Below are positions 19,558-41,901 of a stretch of 64,000 bases of DNA, in pieces. Position numbers and translations under genes: made by a program. The stretch covers positions 973,324 through 1,037,323 of the forward strand of contig CAVRHM010000002.1 in the NCBI GenBank assembly GCA_963721015.1, read 5' to 3'. The notes under the pieces are model-generated. The model did no database searches. It was not told the DNA's origin and saw nothing but the letters and a program-made list of their open reading frames with translations. The DNA is from an uncultured Chloroflexia bacterium. GTDB taxonomy: Bacteria > Chloroflexota > Limnocylindria > Limnocylindrales > CSP1-4. Within the stretch, counting starts at the first letter, position 1. The number at the start of each line of letters is the position of its first letter.

Positions 19558-19575
19558 GTCGCTCGCTTCTCCCGC

Positions 19576-20124: not shown

Positions 20125-20231
20125 CGCGGACTCCCTGGGGTGCCGATGAGGCCGCTCCGAGGTCCAAGGCGAAGCTCCGCGACGCCATGGGCCCGAGGAT
20201 CGTGCTGCGTCGTCATCTGGGTCGCGACCTC

Positions 20232-21107
20232 CTACGCGTAGGCGAGGGCGCGCGCCACGGCTGAGCGGAGCGACCGGACGGTCAGCTCGGCGGCCATCGC
20301 TCGCTTGTATTCGACGGGTCCGCGGATGTCACCGAAGGGTCTCGACTGCGCTCCGGCCGCCTCACCAGCCTGGCGGAACAACTCCTCCGACGGCCGCCGT
20401 CCGGCGAGGATCGCCTCGGCATCCGTGGCCGCGAACGGTGTCTCGGCGACGCCGGTCAGGCCGATCCCAGCGGAGGCGATCTGGCCCTCCACGCCGAGTC
20501 GCACGAAGACCGCCGACCCGCAGGTCGCGAAGTCGCCGACCTTGCGCTCCAGCTTGGTGTAGGCGCCGCCGGAGCCCCTGGGTCGACGGGTCATCCGGAT
20601 CTCGGTCAGGACTTCGGTCGGCTCGATGGCCGTCGTGAACGTATCGAGGAAGAAGTCGCGGGCCACGACCTCGCGCTTGCCGCCCTGGCTCCTGCACACG
20701 ATGGTCGCATCCACCGCGAGGAGGAACGCCGGCCAGTCGCTCGCCGGGTCGGCATGGGCGACGGACCCGCCGATCGTGCCCCAATTCCGGACCTGCGGGT
20801 CGCCGATGGTCGCCGCGACATCGACGATGCCCGGGTAGTGATCGACGATGATCGGGTGCTCGTGGATCTGGCGGTGGGTCGCCCGTGCGCCGATGCGCAG
20901 CTCGTCGTCCGTCTCGGTGATGCCGTCCAGGCCGGTGATGTCCTTGAGGTCCACCAGGAGGCCGGGTTGCGCAAGCCGGAGCTTGATCAACGGGATGAGG
21001 CTGTAGCCGCCGGACAGCAGCTTGGCCTCCCCCTCGCGGTCCTTGAGGATCCGCAACGCTTCGTCCAGGTCACCCGGACGGACATAGTCGAACTGACCGG
21101 GGATCAT
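20232..21107 (-). CDS. coxM: CO dehydrogenase medium FAD-binding subunit
   Basis: FAD_binding_5/CO_deh_flav_C-type: [11 protein letters not shown]...[11 protein letters not shown]...[12 protein letters not shown]. Confidence 0.9.
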
Positions 21108-24745: not shown

Positions 24746-25360
24746 CTAGCCGCGCCCCTCGGGCGGCACCCACTGGTTGGCCTTCTCGTTCCGAGCGGCC
24801 AGCGTCGCCGTCTCCTCGACCCGCTTGGCGCGAGTCTCGGGCCGCTTGGCCCCGCCGATCCAGGTGAGGATGGCCTTCCGTGCGCTCGGGCTGAACGCGT
24901 CCCAGTTGGGGCGAGCCGGCGGGTGCGCGTCCAGCGCCGCCACCAGGTCGTCCGGGACCACCAGCGCTTCGACGTCATCGAGCATCGTCCACGTCCCGAG
25001 GCGCTTGGCCTCCTCGACCGCCGCCAGCCCGGCCGGGAGCATGAGCCCGGCCGCGGTCAGGCGCTCGACGCGAGCCTTGTTCGTGCGTGCCCAGCCGCTC
25101 CGAGGACGGCGCGGGGCGAACCATTGGATCGTCCGGTCGTCATCCAGCCGGCGCTGGACGGCGTCGACCCAGCCGACGCACAGGGCCTCCTCGACCGCGT
25201 CCTCGTACGGAACGCTCGTCCGGCCGGTCGGCTTGCGCCAGGACGCGAGATAGACGCCGATCGATGTCGCATGGTTGGCGATGAGCCAGGCGCGCCAGCC
25301 GGCGCGGTCGAACGGGCCGACGAACGGCTTGCCATCCGGGGCCAGGCCATCGCCGGTCAT
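24746..25360 (-). CDS. YdeI/OmpD-associated family protein
   Basis: Motifs: FDRAGWRAWLIANHATSIGVYL, WFAPRRPRSGWARTNKARVERL, ARKAILTWIGGAKRPETRAKRVEE. Confidence 0.6.
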   Translation of the reverse strand: MTGDGLAPDGKPFVGPFDRAGWRAWLIANHATSIGVYLASWRKPTGRTSVPYEDAVEEALCVGWVDAVQRRLDDDRTIQWFAPRRPRSGWARTNKARVERLTAAGLMLPAGLAAVEEAKRLGTWTMLDDVEALVVPDDLVAALDAHPPARPNWDAFSPSARKAILTWIGGAKRPETRAKRVEETATLAARNEKANQWVPPEGRG

Positions 25361-26769
25361 CGGTCACCTTCCGGGCTCCAGGTCGCGATGCCGATGGTCA
25401 TCGGGTGCTGGCTGCGCAGCCCGGCCTGGCCCTGGGCATCGATGACGACGAGCGGCTCCAAGGCGGCGACGAAGCGGGCATCCGCCGCGCTGCCCGGGTC
25501 GACCCACAGCTGGCGGCGGAGGAAGTCCTCGAGCGCATCCCGCGAGTCGAACCGGCGCGGCTCACGCTCGACCCGCTCCACCACCGGGTCCCGTCCGCGG
25601 GCGCGCAGGAGCTCGATGAACTGCGGCAGGGCCGGCAGGCTGACCCGCGACTCGCCCCAGACCGGCGGCCAGCAGACGTCGGCGATCGACGACGGCTGGC
25701 GTTCCATGAGGACAGCCACGCACAGGCGCTCGCTCGCGGCCTCCATCGCGTCGACGAACGGACCGATGGCCGCGATGTCGTAGCTCACGTGGGCGATCAA
25801 CGAGACGTCCGCCGAGCCGGCCTCCGCGCCGACCACCGGCCACCGACCCTCCACCGTCGTGACGTTGTCGATGCCGTACTCGTCGGCGATCTCGCGGAGG
25901 CCGCCGAGCATCCCCGGCGATGGGTCGACGGCAACGACGCGCCCGCCGGACGGCGCCAACGCCCGGGCGATCGGCAGGGCGTAGCGACCGGCGCCTGCCC
26001 CGATGTCCAGCCACGTCTCGCCGGGCTGGACCAATGCCAGCAGGGCCTCGAGCGACGGATCGTCGGTCCGGGTCGGATCGGCCCGGAACAGCGAGGTGAC
26101 CGGGGCATAGAAGTCGGCAGCGTCGGGGACCTCCCGGAACCGGTCGACCTGGTCGTTGTTGGCATGGACCCGGTCCGCCCACGCGGACTCCAGGACGGCC
26201 ACGAGATCGGCCGGCGTGTCGACATCGGGGTTCCCGCCGTCGGCCGGCACGGCGATCTCCCGGACGAGCTCGGCGTGGGCGGCCACGAGCGGGCCGAGCC
26301 CGCGATCGCCGGTCGCCTCGGCCGCCAGCCCGAAGGCCGATCGATGGAGCAGGACCGGGTTCCGGCCCCCGTCGTGCGCGTAGACCGGCACGGAGACCGG
26401 GGTCTCCGGGCTGACCCCGGCGTCGTGCAGGGCCCGGAGCGCCGCGATCGGGACGCGCGGCTGGTCGCCGAGGACGAGGAGCGTGGCGTCCACGTCGGGA
26501 TCGAGCGCCTCGAGGCCGAGGCGGACGGAGCTCGATAGGCCCCGGTCCGGGTCGGGGTTGACGATGCGTCGCTCGTTGCGCCAGTCGATGGCGGTCTCCA
26601 CGGCCGACGCGTCCCCACCGAGGACGACGACGACATCGTCCGAACCGACCTCGGCCAGGCGATCGAGGACGTGCTGCAGGACCGGCCGCCCTTCGATGGT
26701 CGCCAGCAGCTTGCCGCCCCCGAACCGCGACCCGCGGCCGGCCGCGAGCACCACGGCCGCGACGCGCAT
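25357..26769 (-). CDS. MocA/MobA-like nucleotidyltransferase fused to class I SAM-dependent methyltransferase
   Basis: N-terminus MRVAAVVLAAGRGSRFGGGKLL...VVVVLG (MobA-like NTP transferase). C-terminus WLDIGAGAGRYALPIARALAPSGGRVVAVDPSPGML (MTase motif I). Stop overlaps YdeI start (ATGA). Confidence 0.7.
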   Translation of the reverse strand: MRVAAVVLAAGRGSRFGGGKLLATIEGRPVLQHVLDRLAEVGSDDVVVVLGGDASAVETAIDWRNERRIVNPDPDRGLSSSVRLGLEALDPDVDATLLVLGDQPRVPIAALRALHDAGVSPETPVSVPVYAHDGGRNPVLLHRSAFGLAAEATGDRGLGPLVAAHAELVREIAVPADGGNPDVDTPADLVAVLESAWADRVHANNDQVDRFREVPDAADFYAPVTSLFRADPTRTDDPSLEALLALVQPGETWLDIGAGAGRYALPIARALAPSGGRVVAVDPSPGMLGGLREIADEYGIDNVTTVEGRWPVVGAEAGSADVSLIAHVSYDIAAIGPFVDAMEAASERLCVAVLMERQPSSIADVCWPPVWGESRVSLPALPQFIELLRARGRDPVVERVEREPRRFDSRDALEDFLRRQLWVDPGSAADARFVAALEPLVVIDAQGQAGLRSQHPMTIGIATWSPEGDR

Positions 26770-26780
26770 GCCGCGAGCGC

Positions 26781-27125
26781 TCAGGACCCGCTCGCCGGGG
26801 GCGTCGCGGTCTCGTCGAAGAGCCCGGGCGTCGGTGGCGTGCGACCCCGCTCACTGCCGGACGAGCCGCGCGCCCCGATCCGCCGCCGGGTCTCGACGTC
26901 GACCGTCTCGCCCTCGCGGGCCGGATGCTCGACCAGCGCGATGAGACGGCTGGCCATGAATCGGCCGGTTCGGACCGGCGTCCCGCCTCGGGTCACCTCG
27001 GTGACCTCGACGACGCCGCGCGCGGTCGTCACCTCGATCCGTCGACCCGCCCGCGTGGCCACGATGTCGAACGTCTGGACGGCGCCGCCGGTGTCGACGA
27101 CGACCTCGACGCGATCGCCCTTCAT
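26781..27125 (-). CDS. small hypothetical protein (beta-rich)
   Basis: GGAGG RBS upstream of ATG 27125. Product MKGDRVEVVVDTGGAVQTFDIVATRAGRRIEVTTARGVVEVTEVTRGG... Ends 12 nt before the MocA-MTase start. Confidence 0.5.
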   Translation of the reverse strand: MKGDRVEVVVDTGGAVQTFDIVATRAGRRIEVTTARGVVEVTEVTRGGTPVRTGRFMASRLIALVEHPAREGETVDVETRRRIGARGSSGSERGRTPPTPGLFDETATPPASGS

Positions 27126-27258
27126 CGCTGCCTCCTCTGCGCGGATCCGATGCTCCCGCCGAGACCGATGCTAGCCGGTTGCGCGGCAGGAGTAGCGTGT
27201 GGACCGCGCGAGGCATCCGCCCAGTCAAGACGCCCGCGCGGTGGAGGAGCGTCGCCCC

Positions 27259-28191
27259 ATGTCCGAGCCCGTGGATCCGTCCCTACCCCCGGTCGATCCT
27301 GCCCCCGTCCCACCCGCGTCACCCGAGGTCCCGGACGACGCTTCGCCGGCCGCCGGCGCCCCCGCGGCTGCCGCGGCCGCCTTCACGCCGCCAGCGCTGT
27401 CCGCCTTCGACCTCGCCAGTCGGACCGTGCTCGGTGGCGCGGCGCTTGCCATCGTCGCCGCCCTCCTCGGCGTCATCCTCGAGGCCTGGGAGTTCCAGCC
27501 GTTCGCCCTGGCCATCATCGTCCTGGCCATCATCGCGGCCGGCGCCGCCTACAGCCTCCAGGCGCTGAGCGTCAGTGACGCCGTCAAGCCCTGGCAGCCG
27601 GTCGTGCTGGCCGCGGCCGGCGCCACGGCCACGGCCATCAGCGCATTGGCCGTCGTCGAGATGATCGGCGACCTCGACGACCTGGAGGCATACGGCGGCT
27701 TCGTCGGGTTCATCCTGGGCATCCTCGTCCTGGCTGGTTCGATCGCGATCCTGCAGGGCGGCATCCGCGGCACCTTGCCGAACCTTCGCGGAGCGGAGCG
27801 CGGGGCCCAGCTCGCCGGCATCGGGATCGCCCTCGTCCTGCTGGCCTGGGTCCTGCACCTGACCATCGGCTTCTGGGCTTTCGCGCCGGCCGTCTGGGGG
27901 ATCCTGGCCATCGTCCTGGCGGCCACCCTGGTCCTGTTCGGCAGTACGGAGGAGCACCTCCCGGACTGGGTCGGCTGGGTCGCCGTCGTCCTGGGCCTGT
28001 TCGCCGCGTGGACGGCGCTCGGGCAGTGGGGGTCGCTCATGGAGCTCGGCGCGACCGAAGTCGAGCTCGGGATCGACGACATCGTGCCGTTCCTCATCTA
28101 CGTCGCCGGGATCATCCTGGTCATCGCCGGTGGGGCGCTGCACGCGATGGGCGGAAAGCTCGCCATCCCATCCAGGACCACGACGCCCTAG
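27259..28191 (+). CDS. polytopic membrane protein (hypothetical)
   Basis: Start at MSEPVDPSL. At least 8 hydrophobic segments after a Pro/Ala-rich N-terminus. Confidence 0.55.
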   Translation: MSEPVDPSLPPVDPAPVPPASPEVPDDASPAAGAPAAAAAAFTPPALSAFDLASRTVLGGAALAIVAALLGVILEAWEFQPFALAIIVLAIIAAGAAYSLQALSVSDAVKPWQPVVLAAAGATATAISALAVVEMIGDLDDLEAYGGFVGFILGILVLAGSIAILQGGIRGTLPNLRGAERGAQLAGIGIALVLLAWVLHLTIGFWAFAPAVWGILAIVLAATLVLFGSTEEHLPDWVGWVAVVLGLFAAWTALGQWGSLMELGATEVELGIDDIVPFLIYVAGIILVIAGGALHAMGGKLAIPSRTTTP

Positions 28192-28194
28192 CCG

Positions 28195-29298
28195 CTAGGC
28201 GACCGCGCGCTCCTTCATCGGCACACCGGAGCCGCCGTAGCGTTCGGCGACGACCTCGGCGAGGATCGCCAGGGCGGTCTCCGGCGGCTGCCGGCCGCCC
28301 AGGTCCAGGCCGACCGGGCCGCGGAGCCGGGCCAGCTCGTCCGGCGTCACGCCGGCCTCGAGCAGGCGCTGCCGGCGGTCGCCCTGAGTCTTCTTCGAAC
28401 CCACGGCGCCGACATAGCGGCAACCGCGCCGCAGGGCCTCGACGATCGCGGGCTCGTCGAACTTCACGTCGTGGGTCAGGACGGCGACGGCGTCGTTCGG
28501 GCCCAGCCCGATCTCGTCCGCGACCTCGTCCGGCCAGCCGACGACGAGGCGATCGACGTCGGGGAACCGCTCCGGCGTCGCGAACGACGCCCGGCCATCG
28601 ATGACGACGGTCTCGAAGCCGAGCTCGCGCGCCAGGCGGACGAGGGACCGGGCGACTTCGACCGCGCCGACGACGACGAGCCGCGGCCGGACGGGAAAGG
28701 CCTCGATGAACAGCGACCGGCCACCCAGCTCGACCGTCCGCGACTGCCCGCGCTTGAGGGCCTCCCGGGCCTGCGTGACGAGCTGCGCGTCCAGCGTGCC
28801 GTCGCCGAGGGTGCCCTCCAGCGTCCCGTCGTCGCGGACGATCAGCTCGGGCTCCGGTGGCGCGCCGTCGCCCGGGGTGTGCTGGCCGAAGTCGGCCGGC
28901 GGCGAGTCAACGGGGAGTGGCGTCACGACGGCCACGCCCTGCCCGCCCGCCCCGACCGACGCCCGCGCGGCGTCGACGGCGACGACCGGCACGGCCGGCT
29001 CGACCAGCACGTCGATCGTGCCACCGCAGGCCAGGCCGACATCCCAGGCCTGCTCGTCGCTGATGCCGTAGCGGATGACCCGGGCGTGGCCGGTAGCCCG
29101 GGCGCGCTGGATCTCCTCGGCCGCCGCGCCCTCGACGCAGCCGCCGCTGACCGACCCGGCGATCCGGCCGTCGGCCGCATAGAGCAGGACCGCGCCCTCC
29201 GGCCGTGGGGCCGACCCGAACGTGCGGACCACGACGGCACGCCCGACCTCGGTCCCCTCCCCCTGCCAGGTGCTGAGCGTCTCGAGCAGCTCCTTCAT
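28195..29298 (-). CDS. XdhC/CoxI(CoxF) family molybdenum hydroxylase accessory protein
   Basis: Motifs: GSVSGGCVEGA and RLVVVGAVEVARSLVRLARELGFETVVIDGR. Confidence 0.8.
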   Translation of the reverse strand: MKELLETLSTWQGEGTEVGRAVVVRTFGSAPRPEGAVLLYAADGRIAGSVSGGCVEGAAAEEIQRARATGHARVIRYGISDEQAWDVGLACGGTIDVLVEPAVPVVAVDAARASVGAGGQGVAVVTPLPVDSPPADFGQHTPGDGAPPEPELIVRDDGTLEGTLGDGTLDAQLVTQAREALKRGQSRTVELGGRSLFIEAFPVRPRLVVVGAVEVARSLVRLARELGFETVVIDGRASFATPERFPDVDRLVVGWPDEVADEIGLGPNDAVAVLTHDVKFDEPAIVEALRRGCRYVGAVGSKKTQGDRRQRLLEAGVTPDELARLRGPVGLDLGGRQPPETALAILAEVVAERYGGSGVPMKERAVA

Positions 29299-29310
29299 CG
29301 CTCCGGTCCT

Positions 29311-30714
29311 TCAGCGCAGGGGCTGCGCGGCGTCGGGCGTGTCGGACGGGCCGGCCACGGCGGCTGGCAGCGGCACGTTGGCGAGGTCCACCGAAGGCGG
29401 TGCCGGGATCGCGGCATGGGCCGCGGCCTCCGAGCCGCGCCGGATGTCCGCCGAGCGGACGCCACCCAGGATCTCGCCGAGCCGCTCCAACGACGCGACG
29501 GTCCCGGCCGGCAGGAAATCGTCGATGTACGGGAACGCGGCGCGCATCCCACCGGCCAGCGGCTGGTAGCCGGGCGTGCCCGCCAGCGGATTGAGCCAGA
29601 CGAGCCGGTGGCAGTTCCGGCGCAGGCGTGCCGTCTCGGCCGCCACGAGCGCCGGGTCCCCGCGGTCCCAGCCATCGCTGACGACGATGACGACGCCACT
29701 CGTGCGCAGCGTCCGCCGGGCCCAGGTCTGGTTGAAGACGCGGAAGCTCTCGCCGATCCGCGTCCCGCCGGCCCAGTCGTTGACCGTGTCGGCCACGCGG
29801 GCCAGGGCCCGGTCGCGATCGCGGTCCTTGAGCAGTCGGGTCACCCGGGTCAGGCGCGTCCCGAACACGAACGACTCGACGCGGACCTCGCTGGCCGAGG
29901 TCAAGGCCTGGACGAACCGGAGCAGCAGCCGCGAGTGGCGCTCCATCGAGCCCGAGATATCGCAGATGACGACGAGCGAGCGCGGCTCCTTGATGGGGCG
30001 CCGCCAGACCCACGACATGAGCTGACCGCCGGTCCCGAGATTGCGCCGGAACATCGCCCGGGGCGCCAGGCGGCGGCCGTGCGAATGGAGCTCGTAGCGA
30101 CGCGTCCGGCGTTGCTCGAGGCGCGGGATGAGCTCGTCGACGAGGCGCTCGGCGTCGCGCAGCTCGGCCGGGGTCATCCGGTCGAACTCCCGGTGGCGGA
30201 GCAGCTCACCGCGCGAGTAGGCGTCGGGCGCGACGATGACGCCCTCGATCTCCTCGTCGTCGACCGCGTCATCGTCACCGGCGGACGGCATCGGCACGCC
30301 CTGCTGGTCCGAGTCCTGCTCGGCGCGCTGGTCGCCGGGCATCGGCTGGGTCTGGCCGGCGGCCTCCTCGCCCTCCATCCCTTGCTCGGCCGGGCGCTGG
30401 AGCGGCGGGGCCCCGAAGTCGCCCTGGCGGCGGGTCCGCTGCCGCCACCACCGGTCGAACACCGCGTCGTAGGTCGGCCGGTCGTCGCGGCGCCGGACGA
30501 AGATGGCCTCGCCGGCGGCCCGGACCTGCTCGCGCTCGCCCATGTCCACGAGGGGCAAGGCCCGGGCATAGTCGACCGCGGCGCCCAGGTCGACGTGGAG
30601 GCCGGCGGCCCGCAGCGCTCGCCCGAACCCGACCGCCTCGTGGAGCAGCCGCCGCCCGTCGACCTCGGGGCCCCACGGGGCCCGAACGACAGCGGGATCG
30701 TCAGCGAGCGGCAT
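29311..30714 (-). CDS. coxE: CoxE-type VWA domain protein
   Basis: VWA_CoxE: LVVICDISGSMERHSRLLL...GGTRIGESF...VVIVSDGWDRGD. Confidence 0.8.
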   Translation of the reverse strand: MPLADDPAVVRAPWGPEVDGRRLLHEAVGFGRALRAAGLHVDLGAAVDYARALPLVDMGEREQVRAAGEAIFVRRRDDRPTYDAVFDRWWRQRTRRQGDFGAPPLQRPAEQGMEGEEAAGQTQPMPGDQRAEQDSDQQGVPMPSAGDDDAVDDEEIEGVIVAPDAYSRGELLRHREFDRMTPAELRDAERLVDELIPRLEQRRTRRYELHSHGRRLAPRAMFRRNLGTGGQLMSWVWRRPIKEPRSLVVICDISGSMERHSRLLLRFVQALTSASEVRVESFVFGTRLTRVTRLLKDRDRDRALARVADTVNDWAGGTRIGESFRVFNQTWARRTLRTSGVVIVVSDGWDRGDPALVAAETARLRRNCHRLVWLNPLAGTPGYQPLAGGMRAAFPYIDDFLPAGTVASLERLGEILGGVRSADIRRGSEAAAHAAIPAPPSVDLANVPLPAAVAGPSDTPDAAQPLR

Positions 30715-30746
30715 ATACGGACTGTGCCACGACTCCCGGCCGAGCG

Positions 30747-32946
30747 TCAGCCGGGCGCCGTGGGCTTCGGGATCGGTGGCGTCGTCCCGTCCGGCCCGGC
30801 ACGACCCGCGACCCGCGGCGCCGGCCCGTGGACGACCTCGAAGCCGCTCGTGTTGTCGGACACGTCGATCTGCCCGTCGCGCAACGACAGGGACAGCGCC
30901 CCGCGCCCGACGCGCATGTCATGGATGGCCAGCTCGGGCAACCACGCCGGGAGCGCCGGATCCACGTACAGGCGGCCACCATCCGGCCCGGCGGCGGCAT
31001 GGATGCCGGCCATGACGGCCACGAACCGGAGGATGGCGCTCGCCGCCCACGCCTGGGGCACGTTCGCGCCGAGGTACTGGACCGGGAAGCTGGCCTCGTG
31101 GCGCGGCAGCCCCGAGAACAGCTCAGGCAGGCGGTTGACGACGAGCCGTTCGGCCGCGTCGAACATCCCACGAGCGACGGTCGCCGCCTCGGCGTCGAAG
31201 CCGTAGCGCCGGAAGCCGCCGGCGATGATCGCGTTGTCGTGCGGCCAGACCGTGCCGGTGTGGTAGCTGAACGGGTTGTACGCGAGGTGGTCCGATGAGA
31301 GCGTCCGCACGCCCCAGCCGGACCACATGTCCGGCGCCATCAGCCGCTGCACGACCCGCCCGGCACGCTCCGGCGGGACGATGCCGGACTGGAGGAGGTG
31401 CCCGGCGTTGGAGGCCACCGAGCGGATGGGCTGCTTGGCGCCGTCGAGCCCGAGGACGTAGGTGCCCTCCGACTCCCACCAGAACGCCTCGTTGAACCGA
31501 TCGAACAGCTCGACCGCCTCGCTGCGCAGCCGCTTGGCCTCCCGACGCCGGCCCAGCAGCGTGTACAGGTCGGCCATCCGCAGCTTGGCGTCGTAGACGT
31601 AGCCCTGCAGCTCGCACAGCGCCAGCGGCAACGGCGCGAGGGTCCCGTCCTCGGCCGGGATGGCGTCGCCCGCGTCCTTCCAGCCCTGGTTGTAGTAGCC
31701 GTGGGTCGAGCGGGTCGCGTACTCCTGGAATCCGTCGCGGTCGCGGTCCCCGTAGCGGTCGATCCAGCGCATCGCCGCTTCCGCCGCCGGGAGATAGCGC
31801 TCGACGACGGCCGGGTCGCCCAGCCAGTGATACAGGTACGAGAGCACGACGATGTACAGGGTCGTCGCGTCATGCGTGCCGTAGTACGGGGCGTACGGGA
31901 GGATCCCCAGCTGGGCCAGCTCGCCGTGCCGGATCTCGTGGGGGATCTTGCCCGGTTCCATGTCCCGCTCGGGGTCGGAGCTCGTCGCCTGGAGGGCGGC
32001 CAGACGGCGCAGCGCGCCAGCGGCGAACTCCGGATAGCCGCCGATGGCCTGCATCGACACGACGAGGGTGTCACGGCCGAACAGGGTCATGAACCACGGG
32101 ACCCCCGCCGCCGGGATGACGATCCCGCGCTCGAAGGTCGGATCCTCGAGCCGAAGGGCTTCGAGGTCGGCGACCGCCGTGTCCCAGGCGCGCCGCACGT
32201 TCTCGTTGCTGGTCTCGACGCGGACCGCGGGCAGCCGGGCGACACCGGCCGCCGCGGGCGGGACCTCCACCCGATTGCAATCGAGCGTCGCCGGCCGGCG
32301 CGGCCCCGCATGAGCGGTGATGGGCAGCCACTTCAGGCAGGTGTGCCAGGTGCCCTTGGGCTCCAGGTCGGCGACGAAGACCAGGCCGCCGTTGGCGTAC
32401 TGGGGCGGGCTGGTGGGGCGCTTGACCTCGACGATGAGCTCGCGCCGGAAGTCGCGGTTCACGTAGGTCGTGCGCAGCTCGGCCCGCGAGCGGTACCAGC
32501 GCGTGTTGAGCACGCCACGCCGGACGAGGGCGTCCTTCTTGACGTCGAAGATGTCCGCGAAGTCCGAGTCGATGACCACCTCGATCGTCAGCCGCACCGG
32601 TCGACGGGCGTAGTTGACGATGTCGATGTCCTCGTGGACGCCGCCCGCGACGGTCCGATCCAGGCGGATGCTCAGGCACTGGCGCTCGATCGGCCCGGCC
32701 TCGTCGAGGATCAGGTCGTTGGTGAACTCGTAGCGCGACGAGAAGAACCGGATCGGGGCCGAGTCGAGCAGGACCGGGCGTCGCCCATTGATGGTCAGGT
32801 CCCAGCCGGAGATGAGGCGTGTGTCCCGCGCGAAGAACCCGTCATCCGGGCCGCCGAGGATCCGCCCATCGGGCTGGCTGATGACGACCCGGTCGTCCCG
32901 ATTGATCGTGATGGTCGCCGGCCCGACCTGGACGGGGGCGGTCATG
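30747..32946 (-). CDS. glycogen-debranching-enzyme-like protein (GDE N-terminal + amylo-alpha-1,6-glucosidase six-hairpin domain)
   Basis: Motifs: VPWFMTLFGRDTLVVSMQ, GKIPHEIRHGELAQLG, YYGTHDATTLYIVVLSYLYHWLGD, GYYNQGWKD, WPHDNAIIAGGFRRYG. Start chosen at MTAPVQVGP (~32946); track ORF extends to 33050. Sits between coxD and coxE. Confidence 0.7.
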
Positions 32947-33000
32947 TCCAGACTGTGCCACGACGCCGGGCCCGCCGTGCGGCGCGGCGGGGTCGGGGCG

Positions 33001-33945
33001 TCAGCCTCGCGCCGCGACCTCGGTGAGGATCCGCTTGGTCTGCTCGCCACGGAGCTGGCGGATGTCCTCCTCGTACTTGAGCACGACGCCCAGGGTCTCG
33101 TCGACGAGCTCCGGCGTCAGCTCCCGCGCCCCGAGGGACATGAGCGCGGCGGCCCAGTCGAGCGTCTCGGCGATGCCGGGCACCTTGGTCAGGTCCGCCT
33201 CGCGCAGGCGATGGACGAAGCCGACGACCTCGCGGGCGAGCTGCTCTGGCGCCGCCGGGACGCGTGCGAGCACGATCTCGTATTCCTTCTGGGCCGTCGG
33301 GTAGTCGATCCAGTGGTACAGGCAGCGTCGCTTGAGCGCGTCGTGGACCTCACGCGTGCGGTTCGAGGTCAGGATGACTCGCGGCGGCAACTCGGCCTTG
33401 ATCGTGCCGATCTCGGGGACCGTGACCTGGAAGTCGGACAGGATCTCGAGGAGGTAGGCCTCGAACTCCTCGTCGGCGCGGTCGATCTCATCGATCAGCA
33501 GGACCGGCGCGACCCCGTCGTGGACCTCCAGGGCCTGGAGGAGCGGGCGGCGGATGAGGAAGTCACTGCCGAAGATGTCGTGAGCGCTCGCATGCTGGGC
33601 CTCGCCGCGCGCCTCGAGGAGCCGGATCTCGAGCATCTGGCGCGGGTAGTTCCATTCGTAGACGGCCGTGTTGACGTCCAGGCCCTCGTAGCACTGGAGG
33701 CGGATGAGCCGCGCGCCCAGACTCTCGGCGAGGACCTTGGCCAGCTCCGTCTTGCCGACGCCGGCCTCGCCCTCCAGGAGCAGCGGCCGGCCGAGCTCAA
33801 GGGCCAGGAAGACGGCCGTCGACAGCGAGCGATCCATGATGTAGTCGCGGCCGTGGAAGTCCTCGGTCAGGGCTTCGATGGAACGGGTGCCCGCCGGACG
33901 GTCGTCACGGGCCGGGGCGGTCGGGCGGTCTTGGCGAACGGTCAT
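33001..33945 (-). CDS. coxD: CoxD-type MoxR-family AAA+ ATPase
   Basis: Walker A GEAGVGKTELAKVLA, Walker B VLLIDEIDRADEE, sensor ILTSNRTRE. Start at MTVRQDR. Confidence 0.8.
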   Translation of the reverse strand: MTVRQDRPTAPARDDRPAGTRSIEALTEDFHGRDYIMDRSLSTAVFLALELGRPLLLEGEAGVGKTELAKVLAESLGARLIRLQCYEGLDVNTAVYEWNYPRQMLEIRLLEARGEAQHASAHDIFGSDFLIRRPLLQALEVHDGVAPVLLIDEIDRADEEFEAYLLEILSDFQVTVPEIGTIKAELPPRVILTSNRTREVHDALKRRCLYHWIDYPTAQKEYEIVLARVPAAPEQLAREVVGFVHRLREADLTKVPGIAETLDWAAALMSLGARELTPELVDETLGVVLKYEEDIRQLRGEQTKRILTEVAARG

Positions 33946-34098
33946 GGGCGGAGGGTACACGGACCGACGAACCGACGACGACCGACCCACCGGGCGCGTC
34001 GCGGGCGCGCGACACACGCGACACGCGACACCGCGCGCGTACCATCCGGGCCATCAGGCCGCCGGGACCGCCTCGCCATGCGCGATGGAGGCACGTCC

Positions 34099-34977
34099 AT
34101 GCGTTCGCGATCCGTTGGACCCGGAGCGATCCTGATGATCGTGGCGGTCGCTGCCTGCGCCGGGCCCGGCGGGGGCACCGCGGCCACACCCGCTCCACCG
34201 GCCCCGCAGGCGTCCGTCGTGCCGTCCGTCGCGGCCTCACCGTCCGTCGCCGGCTCGCCGGCCGCGGACCCGCTGGCCGCTCCGACCATCGACGGCTCGT
34301 TCGCCGTCGCGGACGGACGCACGCTGGCGCTCCGCTGCTGGGGCGAAGGCGATCCGACCATCGTCCTCGTCGGCGGACACCCATCCTCCGGGATCGCGGA
34401 CTTCGAGGTGTCCCCCGGCTTCCTCCGGCCCCTCGCCGAGCAGACGCGAACGTGCGCCTATGCACGCTCAGGCTACGCGGGCAGCGACCCGCCCCCGAAC
34501 GAGCCGCGCGACGCGGACGACGTCATCGGTGACCTGCATGACCTGCTCGGGTCGGCCGGCATCGATGGGCCGGTCGTCCTCGCCGGGGCTTCGTTCGGCG
34601 GCTTCATCGTCGCCTACTACGCGGCCCGCCACCCCGAAGACGTGAGCGCCGTCGTCATGCTCGATGCGCCGGTGCCCAGCGCGACCCTCAGCCTCGACGA
34701 GATCCCCGAGATCGCCTGGGACCATCCCGAGAATCCCGAGCGGACTGACACCATCGCCGAGTTCGAGCATCGCTTCGCGCGCGAACGCCTGCCGATCGAA
34801 GCGCCGCTGCGGATCGTGACGGCCACCCGCGGGTTCGACACCGAGGAGCAGGATCTCTGGCTGGACATCAGCCCATCAGCTGACCAGGTCCGGCTTCAGG
34901 GAGGACATGACATCCACGTCGATGACCCGGCCGGCTCGGCCGCCGAGATCCTCGAGATGGTCGACGCCGCGACCTGA
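34099..34977 (+). CDS. alpha/beta-hydrolase lipoprotein
   Basis: Signal/lipobox MRSRSVGPGAILMIVAVAAC. Nucleophile elbow GASFGG. Confidence 0.7.
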   Translation: MRSRSVGPGAILMIVAVAACAGPGGGTAATPAPPAPQASVVPSVAASPSVAGSPAADPLAAPTIDGSFAVADGRTLALRCWGEGDPTIVLVGGHPSSGIADFEVSPGFLRPLAEQTRTCAYARSGYAGSDPPPNEPRDADDVIGDLHDLLGSAGIDGPVVLAGASFGGFIVAYYAARHPEDVSAVVMLDAPVPSATLSLDEIPEIAWDHPENPERTDTIAEFEHRFARERLPIEAPLRIVTATRGFDTEEQDLWLDISPSADQVRLQGGHDIHVDDPAGSAAEILEMVDAAT

Positions 34978-34978
34978 C

Positions 34979-35494
34979 CTAGCCGACCTCGATCGCGACC
35001 TCGACCGGGACGGCCCGCTTGACCGCGTCGCAGACCGGGCAGTGGTCGATGCCCCACCGGATGATCTCGTGCACCTGGTCGGGCGGCGCCGTCGAGGCCG
35101 CGACGCGGACGGCGACGCGCATCGACAGCGGACCCGCCGGTACGGCCGCGTCGAGACCCAGCATCCCGGCGTCGTCGGACTCGCTGTCGACGGCGACCTC
35201 GAGGCCATCGAGCCGCACCCCGAGCTCCGCCGCCCGCATGGCGATGAGCGTGGCGATGCACGAGGCGTTCGCGGCGCGCATGAGCCAGCCCGGCGACGGG
35301 GCGGACGCGCCGCCGCCGATGCCGGTGACCATGTCCGTCGCGATGGTCGTGCCGTCGGGCGCCGCGACCCGCATCCGGAGCCCGTCCTCGATGACCGCGG
35401 TCGCGGCGCCGTCGCGGTAGCGCGCCTCCGCCCGGTTCGCCGCCACCCAGGCCCGCGCGCCCGTGACCGCCGCCGCGATGTCCGTGTCAGCCAT
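34979..35494 (-). CDS. OsmC/Ohr family protein
   Basis: Start MADTDIAAAV with GGAGG upstream. Motifs: ASCIATLIAMRAAELGV and GIDHCPVCDAVKRAVP. Confidence 0.7.
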   Translation of the reverse strand: MADTDIAAAVTGARAWVAANRAEARYRDGAATAVIEDGLRMRVAAPDGTTIATDMVTGIGGGASAPSPGWLMRAANASCIATLIAMRAAELGVRLDGLEVAVDSESDDAGMLGLDAAVPAGPLSMRVAVRVAASTAPPDQVHEIIRWGIDHCPVCDAVKRAVPVEVAIEVG

Positions 35495-35547
35495 CACCGT
35501 CCCTCCCTTCTCGTCCGAACCGATCCGCCGCTGGCGGCCCGGCGATC

Positions 35548-36591
35548 TCAACCATCCGGGGCGTCCAGGTCCCGGGCGTATGGCGGGAACCGAAAGCGCT
35601 GCGAGCGGGTGAGGATCCCGCCGTGGCCGAGCTTGGCGACGGTCTTCTCCGAGGCCGGCTCCCCGGAGAGGAGTCGCGGCAGGAGCAGGTCGGCCGCCGT
35701 TGCCTTGGAGTACGCGCCACAGGTCGGCAGGCCCAGGATGGCGGTATGGCCGACTCGGGCGAGCCAGAGCATCGACCCAGGGTGCGAGGGCACGCCGCGC
35801 CGCACGACGCGTCCGCCGAGTGACTCGATGGCGACGTAGAACGGATCCTGTGGATCGGTCGACGCGGAGCCGGCGGTCAGGACGAGATCGCACAGGTCGG
35901 CGCCGCGGACGAACCGGCCGACCGCGGCCTCCACGGCGTCGACGTCGTCGTCGACGTAGACGATGTCCAGGATCGTCGACCCGAGACCCTCGACCTTGGC
36001 CCGGACGCTCGTCTCGAACCGCTCACGGGCTGTCGCCCGGACGGTCTCCTTGACGACGACCCCCACCCGGCGCGCGGTGAACGGCGCGACCCACACGATG
36101 GGCTGCGAGCCGAATGCCGCGATCCGGGCGCCAGCCTCGACGATCCCGGCATCGACGATATGCGGCGCGACCTTGACCGAGGCCACGAGATCGCCCGCCT
36201 CCACGATCTGGCCATCGAACACGGTGAACAGCTCCAGCGGGTCGAGTCGGTTGAGCCGCTCCAGGTCGGCCACGTTGACGTTGACGACGCCGGCCGCCGC
36301 CGCGACCAGGTCCAACCGGCTCTGGTTGGGGCCGCGGACCTCCAGTCCCGACCCGGCCACGGCCTGGGCGAGCCGGACCGCGGCGTCATCCTCGTGGAGC
36401 TCGCCCGGTTCGGCGATGAGGACGGTGACGGCCGGGCCCGGATCGGCCGTGCCGAGCGCGGTCAGATCGTCGGCCGAGAGCCGCCGACCCTTGCTCCAGC
36501 GGTGCCCGCGGACGTTCAGGTCGCGAGCCAGGACCGCCCCGACGAGGCGCGCCGGTGCGCGCCGACCCGGGATCACCCGATCGACGCGCAC
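35548..36591 (-). CDS. molybdopterin-binding (MoCF-biosynthesis/CinA-like domain) protein
   Basis: VLTAGSASTDPQDPF...GLPTCGAYSKATAADLLLPRLLSGEP resembles MogA/MoeA-type MPT-binding fold. Confidence 0.5.
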   Translation of the reverse strand: MRVDRVIPGRRAPARLVGAVLARDLNVRGHRWSKGRRLSADDLTALGTADPGPAVTVLIAEPGELHEDDAAVRLAQAVAGSGLEVRGPNQSRLDLVAAAAGVVNVNVADLERLNRLDPLELFTVFDGQIVEAGDLVASVKVAPHIVDAGIVEAGARIAAFGSQPIVWVAPFTARRVGVVVKETVRATARERFETSVRAKVEGLGSTILDIVYVDDDVDAVEAAVGRFVRGADLCDLVLTAGSASTDPQDPFYVAIESLGGRVVRRGVPSHPGSMLWLARVGHTAILGLPTCGAYSKATAADLLLPRLLSGEPASEKTVAKLGHGGILTRSQRFRFPPYARDLDAPDG

Positions 36592-36623
36592 CTCAGGACG
36601 CGATCCGTGGTGCGCCGGTCGCG

Positions 36624-37466
36624 CTAGCGGCCGAGCGCCGCCTCGATGGCGCGGCGGGTATAGACGACGGCCATCCGCGCGCGGTAGTCGCGACTGGCAT
36701 GGATGTCGCCGTTGACGGTCTGGCCGTCGGCGGCATGCTCGGCCGCGGCAGCCACCGCCGACACCGAGCCGTCACTGCCCACGAGTGCGGACTCGACGGC
36801 CTTGGCCCGATACGGCGTTTCGCCGACACCGGTCAAGGCGACCCGGGCGTGCGACACCGAGCCGCCGGACATCGCGACCACGGCCGCGACCCCGACGATG
36901 GCGTAGCCCGACGCCGGATTGCCCAGCTTCTGGTAGGAGCCGCCGGCCCCGTCCGGGAGCGGGCCGCGGACCAGCTTGATGAGGAGCTCGTCCGGTTCGA
37001 TGGCCGTCTGGAACGGGCCCTGGAAGAAGCCGTCCAGGGGCACGGTCCGTTCGCCCCGCTTGGAGCGGAGGACGGCCTTGTAGTCGAGGGCCAGGCCCAG
37101 GGCCGGGATGTCCGAGGCCGGATCGGCGTGACTGACCGAACCGCCGACCGTCCCACGATTGCGCACCTGGATGTCGCCGATCTCATTGACGCACTCTCGG
37201 GAGATGGCAAGCCCGGTCGACGCCAGGACGTCGGCGTAGGTCGCCAGCGCGCCGGTCTCGAATCCGCCGTCCGCGGTGGGCCCGAGCGCCCGGAGATCGT
37301 CCAGCCCGCCGATATCGATGAGCGTGGTCGGGTTCGCGAGCCGGAGCTTCATGAGCGGCAGGAGGCTCATCCCGCCGGCCAGGACCTTGGCGTCGCCGCC
37401 GGCGATGGCCGTCAGCGCGTCGTCGACCGACGACGCCCGCTGGTACGTGAACGGTGCCGGGATCAC
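36624..37466 (-). CDS. form II CODH-like medium FAD-binding subunit
   Basis: [18 protein letters not shown]...LAGGMSLLPLMKLRL...GTVGGSVSHADP. GTG start overlaps upstream TGA (GTGA). Track ORF upstream extension is junk. Confidence 0.8.
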   Translation of the reverse strand: MIPAPFTYQRASSVDDALTAIAGGDAKVLAGGMSLLPLMKLRLANPTTLIDIGGLDDLRALGPTADGGFETGALATYADVLASTGLAISRECVNEIGDIQVRNRGTVGGSVSHADPASDIPALGLALDYKAVLRSKRGERTVPLDGFFQGPFQTAIEPDELLIKLVRGPLPDGAGGSYQKLGNPASGYAIVGVAAVVAMSGGSVSHARVALTGVGETPYRAKAVESALVGSDGSVSAVAAAAEHAADGQTVNGDIHASRDYRARMAVVYTRRAIEAALGR

Positions 37467-39886
37467 GCCTGGCCTCCCTTCGCCGCTTCGATCGCGGACC
37501 AGACCTTCTGGGATGTGTAGGGCATGTCGAGATGGCGGATGCCGAGCGGGCTGAGCGCGTCGATGACCGCGTTCGCGACCGCCGCCGTCGAGGCGATCGC
37601 CCCGGCCTCGCCGACGCCCTTGACCCCGATCGGGTTGACCGGCGAGGGGGTCACGGTCTCGTCCAGCTCGAACGTCGGCAGGCGCGATGCCTTGGGCAGC
37701 GCGTAATCCATCATCGAGCCCGACAGGAGCTGCCCGTCGTCGCTGTAGATGGCCTCCTCCCAAAGGGCCTGGCCGACACCCTGGGCGATGCCGCCGTGGA
37801 GCTGGCCGTCGACGATGAGGGGGTTGATCTTCTTGCCGACGTCGTCGACGGCGACATAGCGGACGAGGTCGACCTTGCCCGTCTCCTCGTCGATCTCGAC
37901 GACCGCGATGTGCGTCCCGAACGGCCACGTGCAGTTCGGGGTGTCGTAGTAGGCCGTCTCGTCGAGGTACGGCTCCATGCCTTCGGGCGTATCGAACGCC
38001 AGGTCGAGCGCGAAGGCGATCTCCTGGAGCGTCTTCTTGCGGTCCGGGCTGCCTTTCACCCGGTACTCGGCGCCCTCGATCTCGATATCGTCGGGCGACG
38101 CCTCGAGCATGTGCGCCGCGTAGCGCCGGGCCTTGGCCTTGACCTTGTCCGTCGCCTTGATGGCCGCGGTCATGCCCACCGAGCTGGTGCGCGACCCGTA
38201 CGAGCCGTAGCCGAACGGGGTGCCCTGCGTGTCCGAGTGCTGGATGATGACGTCCTCCATGGGGACGCCGAGCTCGGTCGCCACGACCTGGGCGTAGGTC
38301 GTCTCGTGGCCCTGGCCCTGGGGCTGGGTGCCCATCGTGACCACGACCTTGCCGGTCAGGTGGATCTTGATGTTGGACGACTCCCACATGGCCGCGCCCC
38401 AGCCCTCGCCGACCGCGCCGATCCACTTGGACGGCGCGACGCCGCAGACCTCGATGTAGGTCGACAGGCCGAGGCCCAGGAGCTTGCCGCGGCCTTTGGC
38501 CTCGGCCTTCTTGGCGGCCAGGTCGCCGTACCCGACGGCGGCCAGGGCCTTGTCCATGGCCGGCTCGTAGTCGCCGGAATCGATGTAGATCTTGGCGCCG
38601 CCGCTGGCCGTACCCAGGCCTGACGGGTTCTCGTAGGGGAACTGGTCCGGGGCGATGAAGTTCTTGCGGCGCAGCTCCGCCCGGTCCATCCCGATCTCGG
38701 CGGCGAACAGGTCCATGGCCCGCTCGATGACGTACGTCGCCTCGGGCCGGCCGGCGCCGCGGTACGCATCCACGAACGTCGTGTTCGTGTACACGCCGGT
38801 GACCTCGGCATAGACGTTCGGGATCTTGTAGCAACCGCTCAGGACGCGCGCGTACAGGGTCGTCGGGATACCTGGCCCGATCGTCGACAGGCGACCGCCC
38901 AGGTTGGCCAGGGTCTTGACCCGCAGGCCGGTGACCTCACCGTCACGCGTGCCCGCGATCTCCAGGTAGGTGATGTGATCGCGGCCGTGGATCGTGCTCT
39001 GGTAGCTCTCGCGCCGACCCTCGACCCACTTGACCGGCCGTCCGCCGAGCGCCTTGCTGGCGAACAGGACGAGGGCGTAGTCCGGGTAGCAGAAGATCTT
39101 CGTGCCGAAGGCGCCACCGACATCCGGGCTGATGCACCGGATCTTGTGCTCCGGGATGCCCATCACGAACGCGGCGAGCAGGAGCCGCTGGATGTGCGGC
39201 GTCTGGCTGGACATCCAGATCGTGTACTCGTCGGTGCCCGGGTTGTACCAGCCGATGTTCCCGCGGGCCTCCATCGGGTTGGGGATGAGCCGGTGGTTGA
39301 CGATCCGCTGGCGGACCACGACCTCGGCCCCGTCGACGGCGGCGTCCGTGCCGGCTTTGTCGCCGACGGTCCACTCGAAGACGACGTTGTTCGGTGCGTT
39401 CTCGTGGAGCTGCGGCGCGCCGTCGGCCATCGCCTTCTCGGCATCGACGACCGCGGGCAGTGGCTCCCAGTCGACCTGGATGGCGTCCAGCGCGTCATAG
39501 GCCTGCGCTTCGGTCTCGGCGACCACCGCCGCGACGCCCTCGCCGGTCCACTTGACGCTGTCCGTGGCCAGCGTCCGGGGCGTGCTCACGTTGTTCTGGA
39601 TGCCCGCGCTGCCGCCCGCCGGCCAGGCCATCGGCATCGGGTTGTACGGGATGTCCGCGCCGACGAACACGCCGACGACGCCGGGCATCGTCCTGGCCTT
39701 GCTGGTGTCGATGGACCGGATGTTGGCGTGGGCGTACGGGCTGCGCAGGATGGCCATATGAGCCATCGACTGGAGCTTGATGTCGTCGAGATAGCGGCCC
39801 TGGCCGGTGATGAAGCGCGGATCCTCGGTGCGCTTGAGGGCCTGGCCGAAGGGGGCGGACGCCGGGGCGTCGAGGACGTCAGTCAT
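37463..39886 (-). CDS. form II CODH-like large molybdopterin subunit (AYRGAGR type)
   Basis: Xanthine dehydrogenase-family MoCo subunit with loop [15 protein letters not shown]. Start MTDVLDAP (39886); track ATG at 39934 is the alternative. Confidence 0.85.
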
Positions 39887-39902
39887 GGTCGGGTCCCCTT
39901 CC

Positions 39903-40397
<495 letters not shown>

Positions 40398-40568
40398 CAG
40401 CCGGACCTCCTTCGAACACTGCTGAGGCACGGCCGGGACCCCGGTCGCGCGGATGACGGATCGCCACGTCCCTGGAGCTGCTCGGGGCCTCTCTCGACGG
40501 CCGGTCCGCGAGTCGGCGGGTCGGTCGGGTGGGAGGTCGAACGATGGTGGCACCGACGGGTAGCGGAA

Positions 40569-41866
40569 TCAAGTCGGCGAGGTTGCGAATGCGGTCCTCA
40601 GCCGGCGGCCGCGACGTCCTCGAACGCGGCGCCCAGGCCGTCGACCAGGACGTCGACCTCCTCGGGCGTGATGACGAATGACGGCGACAGGTGGATCGCG
40701 TGACCGCGCAGCACGCGCGTGGCGATGCCGTGCCTGATCGCCGCACCGACGACCCGGGCCGGGAGGGTCGGCATCGGCCGCGAGCCGAGCCGCGTCGATG
40801 GCCACGGCCGCCGTCAGGCCCACCGTCCGGATCTCGCCGACGAGCGGCGCGTCGGCCAGCCGGCGCACGGCCGCATCGAACGGGCCCTCCATCGACGCGA
40901 CCCGGCCGACCAGGTCCTCGCCCTCCAGGATGTCGAGGTTGGCCAGCGCGGCGGCGCAGGCCGCGGCATGGCCGCTGTAGGTATAGCCGTGGACGAACAT
41001 CGGTCCGGGCGCGCTGCCGTCCCAGAACGGGCCGGCCACCCGTGGCCCGACGAGCACGCCGCCCAGCGGCTGGTAGCCGGACGTCACGGCCTTGGCGAAG
41101 ATGATCAGGTCCGGCGCGATGTCATAGCGCAGCGATCCCCACATCGACCCCGTCCGACCGAACCCGGTGATGACCTCGTCGGCGATGAGCAGGACGTCGT
41201 GCTCCCGGCACAGCCGCTGGACCTCCGCCCAGTACGACGGTTGCGGCGGGTACACCCCGCCCGCCCCGACGACGGGCTCGCCGATGAACGCCGCGATCTC
41301 GTGCCCCTGCCGCTCGAACAGCGCGCCCAGCGATCTCGGTGTCGTCGAGCCCGACCGTGACGACCTCGTCGATGATCGCCCCGCCGTAGCCGGCCTTGTT
41401 GCCGGGGATGCCGGCCAGCGAGGTGCCCCAGGCGTGCATCCCGTGGTAGCCGTGCTCGCGCGACGACGATGATCCGCTTCTCCGGCTGGCCCTGGACATC
41501 CCAGTAGCGGCGGACGAGCTTGGCCGCCGTGTCGACCCCGTCCGAGCCGCCCGAGCCGAAGAAGACGACCGCATCGTCGATCGGCGCCAGCGCCGACAGG
41601 CGCTCGGCAAGCTGGACGGTGGGTTCGGTCGTGAAGGCGCCGAACGACGAGTACGCCGACAGCCGGGTCAGCTGCTCGGCGACCGCATCGGCGATGGCCT
41701 GCCGTCCATAGCCGACGGCGCAGTACCAGAGCCCCGCGGTCGAGTCGAGGAAGCGCCGGCCGTCGGTGGCCTCCAGCCAGACGCCGTCCCCGGACCGGAA
41801 GACGAGCTCCGCGTCCTTGACCGTGTGCATGTCGGCGAAGCCGTGCCAGAACGAGGTGGTGGTCAT
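40569..41866 (-). pseudogene. class III (omega) aminotransferase, interrupted by >=2 frameshifts
   Basis: Three minus frames carry consecutive pieces: MTTTSFWHGFADMH...YWDVQGQPEKRII | REHGYHGMHAWGTSLAGIPGNKAGYGG...VGLDDTEIAG | YPPQPSYWAEVQRLCREHDVLLIADEVITGFGRTG... Confidence 0.6.
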
Positions 41867-41901
41867 CGGCGGATGGTAGCCGCGAGTGGCAGGATGGTGC
41901 G

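Follow-up and report, generated by a model that had tools for sequence, protein, structure and literature searches.

Why should a gene that databases call a glycogen debranching enzyme lie between coxD and coxE, two genes for the maturation of carbon monoxide dehydrogenase (CODH)? We addressed this question for a 64,000-nucleotide stretch of an uncultured genome of the Chloroflexota class Limnocylindria (contig CAVRHM010000002.1; hereafter the window), in which coxD, a gene for a 732-aa protein (30747-32945, minus strand), coxE and an XdhC/CoxF gene follow one another. The canonical order of coxD, coxE and the XdhC/CoxF gene on the minus strand, as given in an earlier reading of the DNA (the original prediction), was confirmed by matches to AAA_5, VWA_CoxE, and XdhC_CoxI with XdhC_C. 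For the gene enclosed by coxD and coxE, that prediction offered two readings, a scaffold or chaperone recruited to the Mo-Cu site or an unrelated insertion. Our results argue for the insertion and against the scaffold or chaperone: the linkage to cox genes is rare, the cargo at this junction varies among relatives, and the active site is intact. We conclude that the gene most probably encodes an active-type sugar enzyme of family GH176 that sits in the coxD-coxE slot as unrelated cargo and is not a maturation factor of the Mo-Cu site.

Identity and active site of the protein between coxD and coxE

The enclosed protein had been described as 730 residues long with GDE_N and six-hairpin domains, and a profile search and an inspection of its catalytic Asp and Glu residues had been proposed as checks. 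Pfam returned GDE_N_bis (152 bits), MGH1-like_GH (50 bits) and a weak GDE_C match (25.6 bits), and both predicted motifs, GYYNQGWKD and WPHDNAIIAGG, are in the protein; the domain description therefore stood, and only the length was revised, to 732 aa. Among solved structures the sole strong match is PDB 7VMA (TgAMY of Thermococcus gammatolerans, named an amylo-alpha-1,6-glucosidase; phmmer E = 8.3e-90), with residues 255-650 aligning to 208-581. An AlphaFold2 model of the window protein (pLDDT 90.9, pTM 0.91) has strands at 12-209 and helices at 248-646, and the domain layout is an N-terminal beta-sandwich, an (alpha/alpha)6 barrel and a C-terminal beta domain. Foldseek also ranked 7VMA first for this model (E = 1.5e-45, target-normalized TM 0.91), with GH63 YgjK next, so that TgAMY is the top match by sequence and by fold.

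TgAMY is the founder of CAZy family GH176, and an Arthrobacter member of the family (A. humicola A8F5) is an inverting exo alpha-1,2-glucosidase with D427 as the catalytic acid, E611 as the base and D287 as the fixer (bioRxiv 10.64898/2026.07.01.735942). According to the same preprint, every kojibiose-binding residue is kept in TgAMY, the evidence for debranching by TgAMY is indirect, most GH176 members are called glycogen debranching enzymes by mere transfer from TgAMY, and the GH176 pocket is argued to be of the exo type and blocked at the bottom, unlike that of debranching enzymes (bioRxiv 10.64898/2026.07.01.735942). The name under which the gene had been predicted is thus outdated, since the family is now GH176 and its best-characterized member is an exo alpha-1,2-glucosidase.

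Catalytic residues were assigned by motif and by alignment to 7VMA, with the residue roles taken from the preprint (bioRxiv 10.64898/2026.07.01.735942); its numbering was not used directly because that of the Arthrobacter homologues is offset from the published enzyme. The acid D424 (in GWKD), the base E608 (in LPELF) and the fixer D292 (in GRD) are all in the window protein and conserved, as are the subsite residues R291, H336, E337, W422, H562, W567, Q631 and W633. When 33 sequences down to 33% identity were aligned, eight of the catalytic and subsite positions were invariant, H336 and E337 were nearly so, and position 562 was either H or Q. The five cox-linked copies that were aligned keep all catalytic and subsite residues, save for the H/Q exchange at 562, and deviate at only 3 of 129 highly conserved columns, each time by a conservative change.

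The window protein therefore resembles the GH176 enzymes in its beta-sandwich followed by an (alpha/alpha)6 barrel, as in TgAMY and the A8F5 enzyme, and in the conserved acid Asp of GWKD, base Glu, fixer Asp of GRD and -1/+1 subsite residues; the stretch after the conserved His-Glu, loop 3 of the preprint, aligns with TgAMY without gaps. It differs in being about 30% identical to TgAMY over the whole fold alignment (36-38% for the Arthrobacter homologues), in belonging to a separate, uncharacterized cluster that is abundant in Limnocylindria, and in carrying an extra C-terminal beta domain and a disordered tail. With the eukaryotic-type debranching enzyme (GH13 plus GH133) it shares the weak GDE_C match and the general six-hairpin barrel class, which explains the origin of the database name. 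In contrast to that enzyme, it is without a GH13 4-alpha-glucanotransferase, and its best barrel profile is MGH1-like or GH63-like; Pfam found no GH13 or other alpha-amylase-family domain in the protein. A bona fide glycogen debranching enzyme (EC 2.4.1.25/3.2.1.33) was rejected on these two grounds, the missing transferase domain and the weakness of GDE_C.

The open reading frame (ORF) is intact, with a third-position GC content (GC3) of 0.93. Between the window and its relative L166, dN/dS was 0.145 for the GH176 gene, 0.154 for coxE and 0.121 for xdhC, compared with 0.12-0.13 for pairs of GH176 genes in their native context. These values indicate that the gene is under purifying selection and is neither decaying nor changing function. 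As judged from the sequence, the protein is an ordinary and probably active GH176 alpha-glucosidase of the inverting, (alpha/alpha)6-barrel type.

The family comprises 10,206 representatives at 50% clustering (E ≤ 0.001). In some homologues (P0130, P0252, P0211 and P0062, the last of which has 73% identity with the window protein) the GH176 part is joined to HAMP plus HD, to a cyclic-nucleotide-binding domain or, as in P0062, to a C-terminal GGACT domain, which suggests signal-regulated glycosidases; a fusion to MoxR or VWA was found in none of these four architectures when they were scanned with Pfam.

Genomic context of GH176 orthologues and contents of the coxD-coxE slot

Homologues were collected from one genome per species with the family alignment and from JGI metagenomes with the window protein, and 165 loci were then searched by tblastn with the window CoxD, CoxE, XdhC and Cox subunits. 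The closest homologues, more than 120 clusters at 71-86% identity, come from Limnocylindria. We took as close orthologues those of at least 60% identity (91 distinct loci, Limnocylindria), of which 78 had a usable upstream flank and 80 a usable downstream flank. CoxD was encoded upstream of GH176 in 4 of the 78 and CoxE downstream in 5 of the 80, while neither was a neighbor in any of the 74 homologues below 60% identity (from Alphaproteobacteria, Cyanobacteria, Actinomycetota, Acidobacteriota, Firmicutes and others). A complete lack of co-occurrence with coxD and coxE had been named as the result that would speak against the original prediction; co-occurrence was found in about 5% of close relatives, far from a general linkage, and in none of the distant ones. 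Conserved co-occurrence with coxD/E/F or coxMSL across genomes, as expected of a CODH accessory gene, was not observed.

The more usual setting is a sugar-uptake operon. With the proteins of one cox-linked locus, L168, as probes, genes of an ATP-binding cassette (ABC) operon for permeases and a membrane protein were found directly upstream of GH176 in 37 of the 78 close orthologues. The order is solute-binding protein, two permeases, small membrane protein and GH176 last; the small protein (about 170-270 aa) has no Pfam match, and its membrane character was judged by eye. On three long contigs with 73-76% identical orthologues, GH176 lies beside genes for xylose isomerase, a sugar kinase and a sugar ABC transporter. 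A terminal place in a sugar-uptake operon is the context expected for an oligosaccharide-processing hydrolase.

Besides the window, the cox-linked set consists of L166 (86% identity in GH176), L168 (85%), the contig of P0003 (83%), L001/L002 (72%), L113 (71%) and L004 (67%). Recurrence in seven independent assemblies means that the arrangement is real and not a chimeric contig, rare as it is. The cox-linkage of GH176 is thus rare and limited to one lineage. In L168 the GH176 frame changes near residue 70 (4750-5200), leaving a called product of just 615 aa, and in L002 the coxD match is truncated; both are long-read metagenome-assembled genomes (MAGs), and sequencing error and a true pseudogene fit equally.

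What occupies the slot in genomes closely related to the window became clear when five relatives (L167 to L171) were sampled through CoxE, at 85-87% identity to the window CoxE. All five have the same backbone of form II S-L-M, MoCF, coxD, coxE, xdhC, a mocA-methyltransferase fusion, OmdA and coxMSL. The slot itself is empty in L167 and in L169, where coxD and coxE are adjacent with a spacer of 10-14 nt. In L168 it contains genes for a solute-binding protein, two permeases, a membrane protein and GH176; in L170, a 321-aa gene and Ppx-GppA, both on the opposite strand; and in L171, VanZ, a PhdYeFM antitoxin and a PIN toxin. Since relatives have different, unrelated cargo or none between coxD and coxE, the junction is insertion-tolerant and GH176 is one of several cargoes. 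Between the coxD stop and the sugar-binding-protein gene of L168 (306-463) lies a near-palindrome, TTGCAAGCGAGTTGTCACGTTCGCAAG, which looks like an operator for a sugar-responsive repressor; this is consistent with an inserted ABC operon that brought its own control region.

By the identities of GH176, CoxE and XdhC, the cox-linked loci fall into two groups, A (window, L166, L168) and B (L002, L113, L004), and the empty-slot loci L167 and L169 belong to group A by CoxE. In a neighbor-joining tree without bootstrap, the two groups are interleaved with native-context GH176 sequences. This pattern fits two gains of GH176 in the slot, and it fits as well one gain that was followed by losses or by exchange, with recombination across the highly conserved coxD and coxE flanks.

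These observations suggest how the arrangement may have arisen. The native home of GH176 in Limnocylindria would most often be the last place in a sugar-uptake operon, and in a minority of lineages the gene would have come to occupy the coxD-coxE intergenic slot, which may be the boundary between two transcription units and not the interior of a tight operon. We infer the direction of events as follows: a whole sugar operon would enter the slot, with L168 as a preserved intermediate, and the transporter genes would later be lost, leaving the hydrolase alone in the window. No transporter genes were found anywhere in the 64 kb of the window.

Start sites, a shared 14-mer and the alternatives to unrelated cargo

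The GH176 frame of 732 aa begins at ATG 32945, with an N-terminus, MTAPVQVGP, that is common to homologues. The upstream limit of the open frame is GTG 33050, and only from there does the frame overlap the coxD stop (33001-33003), as had been predicted; from the conserved ATG, a spacer of 55 nt remains. At the other end, the predicted distance of 32 nt between the GH176 stop and the coxE ATG (30714) proved correct. No Shine-Dalgarno sequence was found in either spacer. The supposed translational linkage to the cox genes is therefore not upheld, given the lack of overlap from the conserved start, the 55- and 32-nt spacers, the missing Shine-Dalgarno sequences and the promoter-like elements that the genes have of their own. 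A scan of 27000-36800 for consensus promoters and terminators gave no site, a negative that carries no information where the GC content is 72% and starts are leaderless.

A 14-mer, GTCGTGGCACAGTC, occurs on the minus strand both 5 nt upstream of the GH176 ATG (32951-32964) and 5 nt upstream of the coxE ATG (30720-30733). In all loci with cargo between coxD and coxE, whatever the cargo, it is found 5 nt ahead of the coxE ATG: exactly in L166 (4678), L168 (6982), L170 (3982), L171 (3982) and L002 (12146), with one mismatch in L113 (3831) and with two in L004 (11190). It is conserved amid an otherwise diverging coxE spacer and is kept in L170 though the upstream genes there run on the opposite strand. 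It was not found in L167 or L169, in which coxD abuts coxE, nor in any native GH176 locus (2.1 Mb searched). Before GH176 it was found in the window and not in L166, L002, L113 or L004.

The sequence of the element, TGg-CACAGT, places the T at -7, as an extended -10 element would for a leaderless mRNA that begins at the start codon. A palindromic operator was rejected, as no inverted repeat was seen by eye. The whole window was also compared with Rfam at gathering thresholds; since zero RNA families were returned, the 14-mer belongs to no described RNA.

A comparable layout precedes coxD. The hexamer TACCCT (33952-33957, minus strand), a candidate -10 element for a leaderless coxD mRNA, is preceded by gTG and lies 6 nt upstream of the coxD ATG (gTG-TACCCT-N6-ATG), and the corresponding sequence is TAGAGT-N6-ATG in L167 (~6028-6045) and L169 (~6042-6059). 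Native GH176 genes in L083-L085 have TATCAT-N6-GTG. Across these loci, TANNNT at -12 to -7 was present at 7% of called starts and 0.16% of random positions, an enrichment of about 45-fold; a Shine-Dalgarno-like sequence was present at about 56% of genes in these genomes. Leaderless starts thus seem to be common in Limnocylindria. In L083, L084 and L085 (~5970-6001), the region homologous to the window protein starts 12 nt ahead of the called start (at 5989), and the deposited GH176 starts are probably 4 codons too short.

From these motifs we suggest, with confidence that is low to moderate, that coxD and coxE form two transcription units, each of them leaderless, which would account for a junction that tolerates insertions. 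We infer that coxD, GH176 and coxE may each be expressed from a leaderless-type promoter of its own. The copy of GTCGTGGCACAGTC before GH176 could lend that gene a coxE-like promoter, and it is the sole hint of regulatory coupling. That GTCGTGGCACAGTC would be a dedicated cis-regulatory element of coxE (a leaderless promoter or an operator), copied before GH176 and wiring alpha-glucoside hydrolysis into a CO-oxidation or persistence program, is a tentative proposal that we think doubtful.

How firmly does the reading of GH176 as unrelated cargo stand? Several observations weigh against it. In the window the 14-mer precedes the GH176 ATG by as many nucleotides as the coxE ATG and would give co-regulation with coxE; purifying selection has maintained GH176 within the cox block of no fewer than two diverged groups, A and B; and the called GH176 gene of L002 abuts or overlaps coxD and coxE. 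The slot copy, moreover, seems to be the relocated orthologue itself and not a spare paralogue, in that the top matches of the species-level scan contained no second close GH176 copy from the L002 and L004 assemblies (subject to the completeness of these MAGs). Finally, the upstream neighbor was neither CoxD nor a transporter in 37 of the 78 close orthologues, and each survey covered the 80 best matches, many of them on short contigs. On an alternative reading, GH176 would still be a glycosidase but would have come under cox-type control, through co-transcription or through the duplicated 5' element of coxE, and would hydrolyze an intracellular alpha-glucoside (a storage glucan or compatible solute) alongside CODH maturation, for instance during starvation or persistence. 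The gene is under purifying selection and is retained without a transporter in the window, L166, the P0003 contig, L002, L113 and L004; it is on the same strand as the cox genes with short spacers and no terminator-like site in the 27000-36800 scan; the genes abut in L002; and the window has the exact coxE 14-mer at an equal distance from the GH176 ATG. However, a toxin-antitoxin pair or Ppx occupies this slot in other relatives, so that position alone implies no function, and the 14-mer precedes GH176 in the window and in none of L166, L002, L113 and L004. We therefore consider such capture by cox regulation unlikely, if still worth keeping in mind.

A role in maturation itself, as a six-hairpin scaffold, a chaperone or a sugar-phosphate-processing helper that acts on the Mo-Cu site with CoxD and CoxE, is far less plausible. 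The coxD-coxE placement in seven assemblies would agree with it, and the proposal that CoxF of O. carboxidovorans releases Cu from phytate makes a Cu-delivery hydrolase not unthinkable (PMC4240915). Nevertheless, the linkage is limited to about 5% of close orthologues and to none of the 74 distant ones, and the slot is empty or holds unrelated genes in relatives whose CoxD/E/F are just as similar and whose coxMSL is the same. All glycosidase catalytic and sugar-binding residues are kept without clade-specific changes, the four fused architectures scanned include no MoxR or VWA partner, and our literature searches gave no link of coxD/coxE or MoxR/VWA to debranching enzymes. Least probable of all is a MAG mis-join or a decaying pseudogene passenger. 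All related genomes are MAGs, L168 has its frameshift near residue 70 and L002 its truncated coxD match; yet seven assemblies, which stem from separate samples and sequencing projects, share these junctions, and this recurrence already refutes the explanation in large part. In addition, the ORF in the window is unbroken and has the GC3 and dN/dS given above, while the frameshifts, seen in assemblies of long reads, may be errors of sequencing.

The surrounding cox backbone and its comparison with known systems

The window has a GC content of about 72%, and genuine genes were singled out as frames with high third-position GC. The coxD product is a MoxR AAA+ ATPase of 314 aa (33001-33945, minus strand) with matches to Pfam AAA_5 and AAA and to the NCBIfam MadB-like ATPase (E = 6e-82), and it is 91-96% identical to the CoxD of relatives; its start is most likely ATG 33945 rather than GTG 34017. 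The coxE gene (29311-30714, minus strand; 467 aa) encodes a VWA_CoxE protein that scores 201 bits against PF05762 (gathering cut-off 26.4), has the MoxR gene 2.3 kb upstream on the same strand, and has homologues at 79-90% identity in Limnocylindria. The XdhC/CoxF-type maturation factor (28195-29298, minus strand; 367 aa) matches XdhC_CoxI (PF02625, 98.6 bits) and XdhC_C (PF13478, 137.7 bits) and scores under the equivalog cut-offs of the AOR- and xanthine-specific XdhC models.

Further downstream on the minus strand are the form I genes coxM-coxS-coxL (17164-21107), identified by Pfam. CoxL is of form I, as indicated by AYRCSFR at residue 388 and by a TIGR02416 score of 1184.7 bits, over the cut-off of 991.15. 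The end of the XdhC gene (28195) is separated from the start of coxM (21107) by 7.1 kb, in agreement with the predicted distance of about 7 kb. This stretch is not foreign DNA; it holds a gene of the backbone, a fusion of a MocA-like molybdenum cofactor cytidylyltransferase and a methyltransferase domain (25357-26769, minus strand; NTP_transf_3 114 bits, TIGR03310 E = 7e-31). The fusion gene comes after the XdhC gene in every relative examined (at the same position in L001, L166, L167 and L169-L171) and is part of the conserved maturation backbone. The added domain is an S-adenosylmethionine-dependent (SAM) methyltransferase, and MocA is fused to it in most relatives examined (L166, L167, L169, L170 and the P0003 contig). 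The XdhC gene and mocA are separated by two genes that match no family. One (27199-28191, plus strand; 330 aa) has a weak homologue of 31% identity in L167 at the same position and in the same relative orientation, and the other (26781-27125, minus strand; 114 aa) has counterparts of 111-128 aa in L001, L166, L168 and L170.

Immediately upstream of coxD in the backbone is a form II-like S-L-M set with a MoCF_biosynth gene (35548-40553, minus strand). Its large subunit (37463-39934) carries AYRGAGR and is adjoined by the S and M subunits and the MoCF_biosynth gene, and the order from the form II set to the cox block matches that in L167, L169 and the P0003 contig. An alpha/beta-hydrolase gene on the plus strand (34060-34977; Abhydrolase_1) lies between the MoCF gene and coxD, and its product has a signal-peptide-like or lipoprotein-like N-terminus. 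It is not at this position in L167, L169 or L171, and an Abhydrolase gene adjoins coxD in L170; the MoCF/coxD interval is thus another place in this backbone, besides the coxD-coxE slot, at which insertions vary. Beside the form II small subunit, two overlapping ORFs (40569-42784, minus strand) match separate parts of a class III aminotransferase profile (205-351 and 10-122), which suggests a frameshifted or split gene, and L169, too, has a short Aminotran_3 gene (223 aa) at the same position.

The accessory subcluster of O. carboxidovorans is coxDEFG, and its CoxF carries both XdhC motifs (PMC4240915). The window block resembles it in having an AAA+ CoxD, a VWA CoxE and a CoxF with XdhC motifs encoded on one strand near a form I coxMSL. 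It differs from it in its place, with a form II set on the upstream side and coxMSL on the downstream side, and in that coxD and coxE are apparently separate transcription units with variable cargo at their junction; the system described for O. carboxidovorans includes no glycosidase. The mycobacterial CODH cluster likewise has a MoxR (MSMEG_0748) and VWA (MSMEG_0751) pair beside the CODH genes (PMC12657314), and the numbering suggests that the two are non-contiguous there too (PMC12657314). Unlike in the window, no GH176 has been reported in that cluster.

Taken together, the gene between coxD and coxE is a new member of a known family in a lineage-specific position. The very abundant "glycogen debranching enzyme" annotation of Limnocylindria belongs to GH176, a family whose specificities are largely uncharacterized and whose best-studied member cleaves alpha-1,2 links. 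Although coxD and coxE are commonly depicted as a single operon, in these bacteria they resemble two separate units, both leaderless, with a conserved 5' element specific to coxE. If the duplication of GTCGTGGCACAGTC did bring GH176 under the control of that element, it would be a small natural case of regulon growth by promoter duplication in an uncultured, trace-gas-oxidizing soil lineage. For the interpretation of gene neighborhoods more broadly, the locus is a caution that adjacency within a recognizable accessory-gene block does not amount to shared function if the junction varies among close relatives.

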